Positions 3,001-6,000 of a DNA stretch of 23,484 nucleotides are shown in pieces. Made by a program: the position numbers. The DNA is taken from the IMG/VR virus record IMGVR_UViG_2687453582_000002; one strand, 5' to 3'. Position 1 is the stretch's first letter. The number at the start of each line of letters is the position of its first letter. The DNA is from a virus (lineage: Duplodnaviria > Heunggongvirae > Uroviricota > Caudoviricetes).

Positions 3001-6000
3001 TTTTGGGTAAATCCAATTAGGTATAGGATTACTCAGTCTTGGACTGGTTATGATTCTTCACTGGAAGGCCATTCTAGATTGCCTGATATCAAATCAGTTA
3101 TTGCGATTGCTGAGATTTTTTCAAAGCGGGATGAACAATTATCGTCAAGAGATATATTTACTACATCTGTGCTTGCTTTACTTATGTGTGCACCGAGTAG
3201 GATATCGGAAATTTTAGCTTTGCCAGCGGATTGTGAAATCACAGAATGTGATGGAAAGGGCATTCAAAGATACGGTTTAAGATTTTTTTCAGCAAAAGGG
3301 TATGAAGGCAATATAAAATGGATTCCAACTTTAATGATACCTGTAGCTAAAAAGGCTATTAGCAGATTAAAAGAATTATCAAGTCAAGCGAGGTTATTGG
3401 CTGCTGAAATTCAAAAGAATTACTCTAATTCAACGAAGGGAACCCTTAAAGAAAATATACCTCCTGATCTCTTTTGGTATGATAGAGAGAAGAAAATCAA
3501 ATATTCTAATGCGCTTTGCTTGTTAACTGAAGGACAGTTAAATCAAAATAAAAAGGAAATGTCAGATAAATTATTCAGACCTACAACGAATTTTTTTAAA
3601 ACTGATATCATTGATTCTGATTATATAAAAGGGTATTTTAATGTTTTTAAAAGACATGGTTATATAAATGAAGATGGTAGCCCATATTTGCTAAGAACAC
3701 ATCAACTAAGGCATCTTCTCAACACATTTGCTCAAATAAATGGTATGGATGAAATGGTATGGATGAATTTAGTATTGCTCGCTGGTCTGGACGTAAGCTT
3801 ATTTCTCAAAATGTTTCTTATGACCACAGATCGCATCTTCAAATGTCTAAAGCAATAAGAGAAAAAAAGTTATCAGTATGTGTTAATGAGCACAGAATAA
3901 AGGATATTCCAGTAGTGGATCTTAATGAGTTTGACTCACTTAGTAGTGGTGCAGTACTTGTATCAAAACATGGCTACTGCAAGCACTCATATGCGTTTAA
4001 GCCGTGTGATAATTATCCAATTAAGAACTCTGGTTTAGATAACGAAACGATTTCAAATATCCACGATAAAATTTTAAAAAGAACACTGTATGATAAAAAT
4101 GATGGGAACATAAATGCTGATAAATGGTATGAATTCCATAAAAAAATAAAAAAAGGAGAATAAATGGCTAAGCATATAAATGGTTATCATGAGAAGAAGA
4201 TTGTAGATGTTATTAACACATGGTCTATAGATGAAAAACTAACCTGGAATGCTTTGTGCGATAGGTTAGTCAGGGTTATTGGGAAAAGACCATCAAGACA
4301 ATCCTTAAGTAGTCATGTAAGGATTGCGGAAAGCTTCAATGTGAAAAAAACCACAATCAAATCTGGTGTAATACACACTGTAAAACCTGCTAATTTAAAA
4401 GTGGCTTCTCAACGAATTAAAAGACTTGAAGCAGAAAATGAAGCTTTGAAGGCATTAAATGAACGCTATTTAGAGCAGTTCAAAGTATGGCTTTATAATG
4501 CTCACCTTAAACAAATAACGATTGAAGAACTTAATAATCCGTTACCTGCAAAATACCTTTAATAAAATTGATAGGTTTTAGCTATTGACATGGTGAAATA
4601 TTATGTTATTTATTTTCTTGTCAGGACGACAAAATTTCACTATTGCAAGGATGCATATTATGGACAAAACAAATATTAACTTAATGGAAAGGTATCTTCT
4701 TCTGCTTGATCGATTCGTTGATAAACTCGCTGAATCAGGTTTCTCAGAGCAACGAATTATCGAACAATCATATCTTTTTTGTGCAGGATTTTATATCAAA
4801 TACCAGAGTGGTATAGAAAAAATGACCTTCTCCAACAGGGAGGTTGTTTTAACCTTTCTGCTACTTTCATATTATAGTCATATAAATAAACTGGATGATG
4901 ATTTGATCAACAAAGAGCGTATGAAGCATGTATGTTCTTCATTGATTAACTTTATAGTCAGTAATGGTAGCCGAACAGAGAAAGTCTATGCTAATGAGAA
5001 AAGGAAATATGAGGCTTCAACTCTAAAAAGAGAATTATCGAAAAAGGATAAAAGGAAAAGATATAGGTTGTAGTGTTTGTATGATTTTCATTAGACTTAC
5101 TTAATCTATAGTCTAAATTTTAATATTAGATTCGTAAATCTATAATTCCATGAATCTAATTAATGCTTAAAAGCATCCTCTAAGATGCTTTTACTGTTAC
5201 CATGCATACATACCCAGAACCTTTAACAAACGATAATAGAGGGGAGTTGTGTATAACAACTCCCTGACCTTACTAAGGTTAGCGATGTTATTCAGCATCA
5301 TTCTGTCAAAGATTTAATTTCTTTGAAAAATACTAATTCTACCCCTTAAGTTAATAACTTCTGCTTGATCGTGTATTTTGGTAAGTTGGAGTACAATTTT
5401 TTGATTGGATCGTCAATAAGAAAAAGCTAGAATCCTTAGAAGGACATAGATTTTCATAGGGTTAAGATATGACGATTGCGAAGGATAGTTCGACTGATGA
5501 AATCATTCATGGAAATGATCTCCGTGGAATGGATGATTTTTACATTAAGACAACGAGTTTTGAATGCCCATACGAGCCTTGTAAAATTAAAGCCACACCT
5601 TGTAGTTTTACTATGAAACATGTTAATCAATCATATTTCAGATATGGCGATAAACATAAGGATGGATGTGGTATTCATGATCCAAGATATAAAAACAATC
5701 ATACTTCAAATGACGAAAGAAAACATAATTCGCCACCTGCTCCGGTTATATCACTTTTAAAAATTGATGTGAAACCAAGAGGTGGTGTTAAAAATGCCAG
5801 AAATATTAAAAATGAAAATCACAAGGATGAAAAAAAAGGTAATGAACATCCTGTATCTTCATCAAGTATTAAGCCAGTCGTTGACTATTACATAAATAAT
5901 AGCAATCATAATGAACAGCTATCAATCCCTCCATATGGCACGCGATCTTATAAAGATACATTTCAACTTATTTTTTACAAAAACAACATACGTTATTACA

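Follow-up and report, generated by a model that had tools for sequence, protein, structure and literature searches.

A recent 14-bp tandem duplication frameshifts the GInt-type ginC gene in the ssrA-linked island of Escherichia coli O157:H7

The gin operon and its 14-bp duplication

The window (the whole 23,484-nt stretch of DNA analysed here) is a segment of the E. coli O157:H7 chromosome that runs from ginA through smpB in the ssrA-linked island, which we take to be the Sp17/O-island 108 region. The island as a whole combines a gin operon and two small cargo genes with IS30 and IS629 sequences and a decapitated lambdoid prophage that bears genes for type III effectors. Its right end in the window holds espW, an NleG-family effector gene, espM2, a DinI-like gene, ssrA and smpB. 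The features relevant to this analysis are as follows.

1..1206, forward strand: ginA, tyrosine recombinase, 401 aa (Pfam PF00589, E 2.4e-18; PGAP, tyrosine-type recombinase)
1208..2521, forward strand: ginB, tyrosine recombinase, 437 aa from the PGAP start (Pfam PF00589, E 2.9e-11)
2518..4163, forward strand: ginC pseudogene, 543 aa in its intact form (WP_001059531.1/Sakai ECs_3510; from PGAP, EDL933 and PMC10214605)
2518..3858, forward strand: ginC 5′ ORF, 446 aa; 412 native residues (including R228, K260, H395 and R398), then 34 out-of-frame residues and a stop
3700..3714, forward strand: codons of the HxxRH box, H395-Q-L-R398-H399, upstream of the frameshift (direct reading)
3738..3751, forward strand: 14-bp unit, first copy (direct reading, TRF, exact-repeat script)
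3752..3765, forward strand: 14-bp unit, second copy, equal to a +14 insertion relative to the intact allele (absent in 247 genomes including EDL933, present in 53)
3759..4163, forward strand: ginC 3′ ORF, 134 aa; native M410-E543, with W418 (3783-3785), Y430 (3819-3821) and a conserved C-terminal Cys/His motif
4164..4562, forward strand: ginD, small accessory protein, 132 aa; its first base directly follows the ginC stop codon
4660..5073, forward strand: conserved ORF of 137 aa, 3′ of ginD; last block common to related islands
22425-22787, reverse strand: ssrA (tmRNA)

GInts, a group of three-integrase genomic islands that was described in Pseudomonas (Bardaji 2017, PMC5385486), occur in 7.5% of Escherichia replicons (PMC10214605). 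The O157 locus is a GInt-type operon that has already been catalogued: Additional file 10 of Idola 2023 (PMC10214605) includes ECs_3510/ECs_3509 (WP_001059531.1/WP_001052051.1) among its GinC/GinD synteny blocks, with WP_001052051.1/ECs_3509 given as GinD in the table. Once ginC is repaired, the window shows the contiguous GInt order of two integrases, a third recombinase-like protein and a small protein; the homology of GinC and GinD to published GInt proteins follows from that table rather than from direct comparison with Pseudomonas GinC. The frameshift is likewise flagged in public annotation, where PGAP labels the gene of carrier strain 7409 a frameshifted ‘DNA-binding protein’. The ginB stop and ginC start codons overlap in an ATGA. 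Called mechanically, the ginB ORF starts at GTG 1196. GinB scores 320 bits against NCBIfam NF041502, under the 350-bit cut-off, and GinD has no Pfam or NCBIfam domain match.

Within ginC, the unit AAATGGTATGGATG occurs as two exact head-to-tail copies without a mismatch, as the initial annotation of this DNA had noted. TRF places the end of the array at 3767, and the two bases that follow the second copy, AA, match too. Two long hexamer arrays aside, the window has no other exact tandem duplication with a period of 10-30. Exact period-14 duplications have a chance expectation of 1.3e-4 in sequence of the same length and composition, and exact duplications of period 12-16 arose in none of 300 shuffles. 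Removal of one copy fuses the two ginC ORFs into a single open frame of 543 codons, in agreement with the initial annotation, and the peptide SGRKLISQNVSYDH, which had been read there as a C-terminal recombinase motif, indeed lies in the downstream ORF. The first codon of this downstream ORF is native Met410.

Distribution of the duplicated and intact alleles

Many E. coli O157:H7 chromosomes match the first 5.1 kb of the window at 100% identity. This segment is present in 392 of 5426 complete E. coli genomes, in one copy each and always on the chromosome, and had no match in the plasmid collection searched. We counted the two O157-type alleles in complete RefSeq genomes at a match threshold of at least 99%. 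The single-copy allele (301-nt query) is found in 247 genomes, including EDL933, Sakai (ECs_3510) and the sorbitol-fermenting strain 493/89; O55:H7 DEC5A carries it at 99.7%. The duplicated allele (315-nt query) is found in 53 complete E. coli genomes, 52 of them at 100% and one at 99.7%, so that about one in six complete O157-type alleles (53/300) has the duplication. Carriers come from several laboratories, countries and years, and include FRIK strains, USMARC cattle strains, bovine isolates from Okinawa, and beef isolates. Over positions 1-7584 of the window, the differences from EDL933 amount to these 14 bp and 12 bp of a GCCAGA hexamer array, with no substitutions. Neither hexamer unit could be matched to a known MLVA locus in the literature, where a search yielded primer noise alone.

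Many carriers are closely related. For example, the strain 113-141 series shares identical coordinates, and the FRIK, 2-6-2, BB24-1 and SS TX 313-1 carriers share the same five resistance genes. On the lineage of the carrier strains, the literature offers indirect hints alone, in the form of resistance genes and plasmid markers in common. One linked SNP, at window position 9168, falls within IS30, and the corresponding query matched thousands of IS30 copies.

Outside the duplicated allele, ginC is a single gene. Alignment to intact homologues, a check proposed with the initial annotation, returned the 543-aa gene of EDL933, an intact 1632-nt CDS (WP_001059531.1), and single ORFs in homologues from 79 species and >1000 protein clusters. 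Among 612 homologues drawn from 5.8 billion proteins, the full-length ones among the matches listed each consist of one protein of 540-670 aa. When 1.84 billion cluster representatives were searched with a profile, 1625 matched (582 at E<=1e-30), mostly at full length. Of 79 related loci, each from a different species, all but two keep the GinC-like frame unbroken; the exceptions, from Pantoea ananatis LMG 2665 (L047) and Tatumella terrea (L064), have interruptions that look like decay. Where the flanking sequence suffices, two ORFs of ~400-450 and 440-560 aa precede the GinC-like frame and one of ~130-150 aa follows it, an ORF of 130-150 aa lying 3′ of ginC in nearly all of these loci. Because EDL933 and the homologues carry a single ORF, the two ORFs in the window are not naturally separate, and ginC is natively one gene.

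Recombinase fold and candidate catalytic residues of GinC

Sequence profiles did not place GinC in the Phage_integrase family. The repaired protein has no Pfam or NCBIfam match and falls short of the PF00589 gathering threshold, and Pfam searches with 36 GinC homologues gave two weak matches (2/36, E 0.01). A GinC profile retrieved no match from the PDB, and hhalign comparisons of 36- and 137-sequence GinC profiles with Cre, GinA and GinB were not significant (E 0.04-0.5). Fold comparison succeeded where these profiles did not: a structure model made from P0001, which is 95% identical to the repaired window protein, has the fold of the tyrosine-recombinase superfamily, with a core-binding and a catalytic domain. 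The predicted structure thus establishes a recombinase fold for GinC.

Examination of aligned homologues highlights a set of near-invariant residues. Aligned sets of 24 and of 36 homologues show no variation at R228, K260, K267, H395, R398, H399, W418 or Y430. Across 137 representatives of 50%-identity clusters (the best 137 of >1,600 clusters), R398 is conserved in all 137, K260 and Y430 in 136 each, R228 in 135, H395 in 131 and W418 in 130. All 79 genomic loci retain the R...W(S/A)GR...Y portion of the motif; in place of the preceding His, L040 and L067 have Lys or Asn. The candidate catalytic set of GinC therefore comprises R228, K260 (or K267), H395, R398, W418 and Y430, whose order and spacing resemble those of H289, R292, W315 and Y324 in Cre. 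The Cre sequence used for this comparison was verified. In the best local hhalign alignments, which are non-significant, H395/R398 pair with Cre H289/R292, and R228 pairs with the GinA box-I Arg.

The initial annotation held that the duplication cuts the recombinase off from its catalytic tyrosine. Y430 does lie in the 3′ piece, and its putative role as the catalytic nucleophile is well supported by its conservation, by the residue spacing and by the predicted fold; segment 422-438 of the model, around Y430, has a pLDDT <50, which makes the placement of the tyrosine in the active site unreliable. This near-invariant residue set is at odds with published descriptions, in which GinC is said to have no first Arg (PMC5385486) or to lack the entire RHRY motif together with the catalytic tyrosine (PMC10214605). 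We consider it possible, with somewhat more doubt than belief, that GinC-type proteins are catalytically competent third recombinases as opposed to the inactive DNA-binding scaffolds of the SE/GInt literature. If they are, O157:H7 strains with one or two copies of the 14-bp unit would be ready-made wild-type and knock-out pairs for the role of a third active site. The near-invariance of the putative GinC active site is of wider interest than the frameshift itself.

Consequence of the frameshift, island context and related systems

With high confidence, we read the duplication as a recent loss-of-function frameshift of a GInt-type ginC in the O157:H7 ssrA-linked island, with a practical effect that is probably small. 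In one O157:H7 sublineage, replication slippage would most likely have turned a 14-bp stretch within ginC into a tandem pair. The resulting +14 insertion is predicted to shift the frame after Glu412, between the HxxR box (3700-3714) and W418/Y430. The predicted 5′ product would retain the core-binding region, the box-I Arg, the Lys and the HxxR box, run through 34 aberrant residues and end, leaving it without Trp418, Tyr430 and the conserved C-terminal Cys/His domain (G481, C483, H485, C492, W532). GinC function is likely lost. In Pseudomonas, frameshift or insertion mutants in each gin gene lost both circle formation and integration, and complementation restored both (PMC5385486). By analogy with the Pseudomonas GInts, GinC would also be needed for recombination of the O157 element, and its loss would abolish recombination by the operon. 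Moreover, because ginD starts directly at the ginC stop codon, the premature stop 300 nt upstream probably lowers GinD translation through polarity.

Four other explanations of the two ORFs deserve weighing. Long-read consensus errors can create short tandem duplications, and nothing specific points to such an error here; an artefact of sequencing or assembly in one record is scarcely credible, given an identical duplication in 53 complete genomes of varied origin and an equally clean single-copy form in 247. Since the duplication is identical in all of its carriers and the single-copy form is otherwise identical, it is a true, very recent and lineage-restricted mutation rather than an assembly error. 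The chance that the ORFs are naturally separate genes, or that they are joined by programmed ribosomal frameshifting, is equally close to nil. The presence of two ORFs is all that favours either idea; 247 E. coli genomes and essentially all homologues have a single intact ORF, and the geometry of the locus (+14 nt, a 100-nt overlap and no slippery heptamer) is not one known for programmed frameshifting.

The initial annotation also allowed that the recombinase is expressed in two pieces. In such an arrangement, translation would restart at ATG 3759, an in-frame native Met (Met410) inside the second copy with GGATGA 6 nt upstream, and the two polypeptides would function jointly; the 3′ ORF overlaps the 5′ ORF by 100 nt, and its translation would restore coupling to ginD. 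The evidence against a jointly functional pair makes it very unlikely. According to the secondary structure of the model, the cut would separate the HxxR helix from the W/Y helices within the catalytic domain, and the 5′ piece would bear an aberrant, hydrophobic tail of 34 residues. The putative ribosome-binding site is weak. Further, none of the 79 related loci has ginC as two stable frames, the Pantoea and Tatumella interruptions being decay-like, so that expression in two pieces has neither an intact catalytic domain nor a precedent in related loci behind it. The exactness of the repeat raises another possibility, namely that slippage reversibly toggles GinC, and hence mobility of the element, between ON and OFF. 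Exact tandem duplications can revert precisely, and O157:H7 includes both states, in 7.5-kb surroundings that are otherwise identical. We nonetheless regard a switch as highly improbable: relative to true contingency loci, two copies of a 14-bp repeat offer a poor substrate for slippage, the matches listed include no three-copy allele, and no aligned homologue has a repeat at that site. The many related carriers, moreover, fit inheritance from one ancestor better than frequent toggling.

A recent loss-of-function frameshift is thus our preferred reading, and it agrees with the suggestion in the initial annotation that the gene is a recent pseudogene: the duplicated and intact alleles coexist among O157-type genomes, and PGAP calls the gene frameshifted. 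How much such a loss would matter depends on the island around it. In relatives, the island order is P4-type integrase, DUF6387, AlpA-like regulator, ginABCD, 137-aa ORF, small ORFs, relaxase and variable cargo. This integrase-first order is seen in A42 at leuX, in Enterobacter hormaechei at three sites, and in Serratia; EC11 (at proL) has the same block, but with the integrase tRNA-proximal, distal to DUF6387. The leuX island of S19-651 shares the same backbone and has a replication-initiator module in place of ginABCD. The gin operon therefore behaves as an exchangeable module. S19-651 keeps the 137-aa ORF, at 68%, without the gin operon. High DNA identity between versions starts sharply ~279 bp upstream of ginA, outside the window, at TTTGTAAAGTTT (position 10122 in L002/L003/L004). 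A search for a right-end copy of TTTGTAAAGTTT gave 6 matches in the window, where chance alone predicts 5.4; the interval from ginD to the IS30 remnant had none. Copies with 93-97% identity in GinC occur in Brenneria, Xenorhabdus, Enterobacter, Klebsiella oxytoca (where strain NBRC 105695 has a 96%-identical copy) and Pantoea. Judged from such sequence comparisons, the gin module clearly appears to be mobile outside O157.

The O157 copy looks different. Its homology to EC11 and A42 stops at window position ~5058-5064, just past the 137-aa ORF. The O157 island has no relaxase after this ORF and no integrase adjoining DUF6387 or ssrA, and we identified neither flanking direct repeats nor an AT-rich 3′ end of the gin element. 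Instead, the gin block abuts IS30 and prophage debris, and it occupies one fixed chromosomal site from O55:H7 through O157:H7. The O157 gin copy thus looks like a degraded, vertically inherited remnant, and the element was probably immobile before the duplication arose. Little was probably lost, since the copy was already such a remnant, and the missing relaxase backbone and adjacent P4-type integrase, the IS30 and prophage debris and the fixed site all argue that the practical effect is small. The initial annotation proposed that the duplication could immobilise the element. The idea follows from the Pseudomonas genetics, but the O157 copy may already have been immobile.

The frameshift itself is an ordinary recent pseudogene of low general interest. 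For biology at large it matters little: gene and island alike are decaying, and the pathogen has been sequenced heavily. It does have practical uses. As a marker, the 14-bp insertion is clean, can be typed by PCR and is probably clade-specific. Likewise, carriers and non-carriers form natural pairs for studies of the GInt operon, near-isogenic over the 7.5 kb compared.

Several known systems combine tyrosine recombinases with a small partner, and the O157 operon can be set against each. Two were rejected as candidates: the gamma-mobile-trio protein GmtY, for which NCBIfam scores reach ~21-22 bits against a 340-bit cut-off, and the RIT trio, all three proteins of which are canonical integrases. 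Cre, XerH, IntI and Tn1549 Int give no significant profile match with GinC, and GinC has, in addition to what they contain, an N-terminal region of ~190 aa and the conserved C-terminal Cys/His domain of ~110 aa. According to the published descriptions, Tn554 (tnpA-tnpB-tnpC) likewise pairs two tyrosine recombinases with a small accessory protein, and a weak similarity between GinD and TnpC has been reported by Bardaji et al. (PMC5385486). Tn554 differs in lacking a third recombinase-fold protein and in being an element of Staphylococcus and Enterococcus.

Integrative elements of the strand-biased circularizing type (SEs) come closer, with a large recombinase-fold protein, a pair of tyrosine recombinases and a small auxiliary protein; the complete set of four is needed for attL x attR recombination (PMC10214605). 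Their gene order, however, is intA-tfp-intB-srap, with the large protein second, whereas the O157 order is int-int-ginC-ginD, with the large divergent protein third; on gene order, the O157 operon is not an SE. Tfp and GinC have no mutual BLASTP match and fall into separate clusters (PMC10214605). Tfp is also reported to be without the RHRY residues, in contrast to the near-invariant R/K/HxxR/W/Y set of O157 GinC. For Sakai NC_002695.2, the replicon tables of Additional file 4 of PMC10214605 give 0 in one and 1 in the second, and we take the 0 to be the SE count.

The closest likeness is to the GInts, in which the gin operon occupies the 5′ end and is followed by cargo and a short AT-rich 3′ end, with imperfect direct repeats of 10-17 nt on either side. 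The O157 operon differs in that it does not sit at the outer end of a cleanly bounded island, and the operon of relatives lies within larger islands that are linked to tRNA genes. Enterobacterial GinC also retains the box-I arginine reported missing by Bardaji et al. (PMC5385486), who had earlier noted truncated gin operons in other genomes. The shared features are nonetheless extensive: two canonical tyrosine recombinases, a larger divergent protein of recombinase fold and a domainless protein of ~130 aa follow one another in the same order, and the overlapping or abutting start and stop codons in O157 point to co-translation of the operon.

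Candidate left edge and proposed genomic slot of the gin module

The gin module appears to have a sharply defined left edge. When island versions are compared, DNA identity jumps from ~76% to ~95.5% exactly at TTTGTAAAGTTT.

Position 10122 of L002, L003 and L004 (island loci), ~279 bp before the start of the window: identity switch at TTTGTAAAGTTT

A second motif resembling TTTGTAAAGTTT lies directly before the ginA start. The TTTGTAAAGTTT site may mark the left end of the module or serve as a binding site for its recombinases.

The position of the module within its backbone can be occupied by other genes. 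In the leuX island of E. coli S19-651, the exact site that holds ginABCD in other islands is taken up by a replication-initiator gene and a small ORF (L011, 10158–12292). The backbone of this island is the same as that of the gin-bearing islands: an integrase, DUF6387 and AlpA genes, and then the 137-aa ORF and relaxase gene. Because the replication-initiator module takes the place of ginABCD in the same backbone, this arrangement suggests that the three-recombinase operon and the replication module are alternative cassettes for one slot.

The DUF6387 end of the block adjoins an autotransporter gene (ypjA or yejO) in both O157 and the EC11 island. In O157, the autotransporter gene ypjA/ehaD (L001, 5509–10094) lies outside the window, on the upstream side of the gin block. 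Its annotation in strain 7409, which carries the ginC duplication, marks it as frameshifted, whereas the EDL933 gene is intact.

Strain-variable sequences beyond the gin block

Several features in the remainder of the window distinguish it from 7409 and EDL933, and a type III effector cluster lies toward ssrA.

6488–6581: perfect GCCAGA hexamer array, 15.7 copies, within a hypothetical gene (5469..6677)
7585–8891: IS3-family element, with orfA (7639..7965) and orfB (7962..8852)
9236–9312: perfect TATTTC hexamer array, 12.8 copies, between an IS30 remnant and a prophage HNH gene
18846–21406: espW, an NleG-family gene and espM2, at the end of a prophage remnant that is nearest to ssrA

The GCCAGA array encodes a Pro-Glu repeat and behaves like a VNTR. 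Its length differs among strains, with the host gene spanning 1209 nt in the window, 1215 nt in 7409, and 1221 nt in EDL933. A literature search on the repeat unit matched no named MLVA locus. The TATTTC array is likewise variable, the window copy being two units longer than those of 7409 and EDL933. The IS3-family element shares 99.9% identity with the IS1203/IS629 copies of EDL933, and its insertion site is empty in both 7409 and EDL933; this insertion is therefore strain-specific. The prophage remnant bearing the effector cluster no longer has an integrase or an early region.

Spread, decay and C-terminal extension of GinC

GinC proteins 93–97% identical to the E. coli type occur in six loci (L013–L018) from Brenneria, Xenorhabdus, Enterobacter, Klebsiella oxytoca, an Enterobacteriaceae MAG, and Pantoea, where the flanking ORFs are the same as at the E. 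coli-type locus. Since both this identity and the flanking ORFs are maintained across genera, sequence comparison indicates that the gin module has been transferred between genera recently. GinC-like frames are interrupted or truncated in Pantoea ananatis LMG 2665 (L047) and Tatumella terrea (L064), and thus ginC decay is not confined to O157. Separately, the 1194-aa cluster representative P0121 contains a GinC-like region at residues 519–1134; it may be a fusion of GinB with GinC or reflect a mis-called gene.

GinC homologs also share a conserved extension beyond the putative tyrosine.

About 3948–4163 (residues 473–543): conserved C-terminal extension of GinC

Five residues (G481, C483, H485, C492, and W532) are near-invariant in this segment, which looks like a small Cys/His module. 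Canonical tyrosine recombinases, in contrast, lack a C-terminal module of this Cys/His type.
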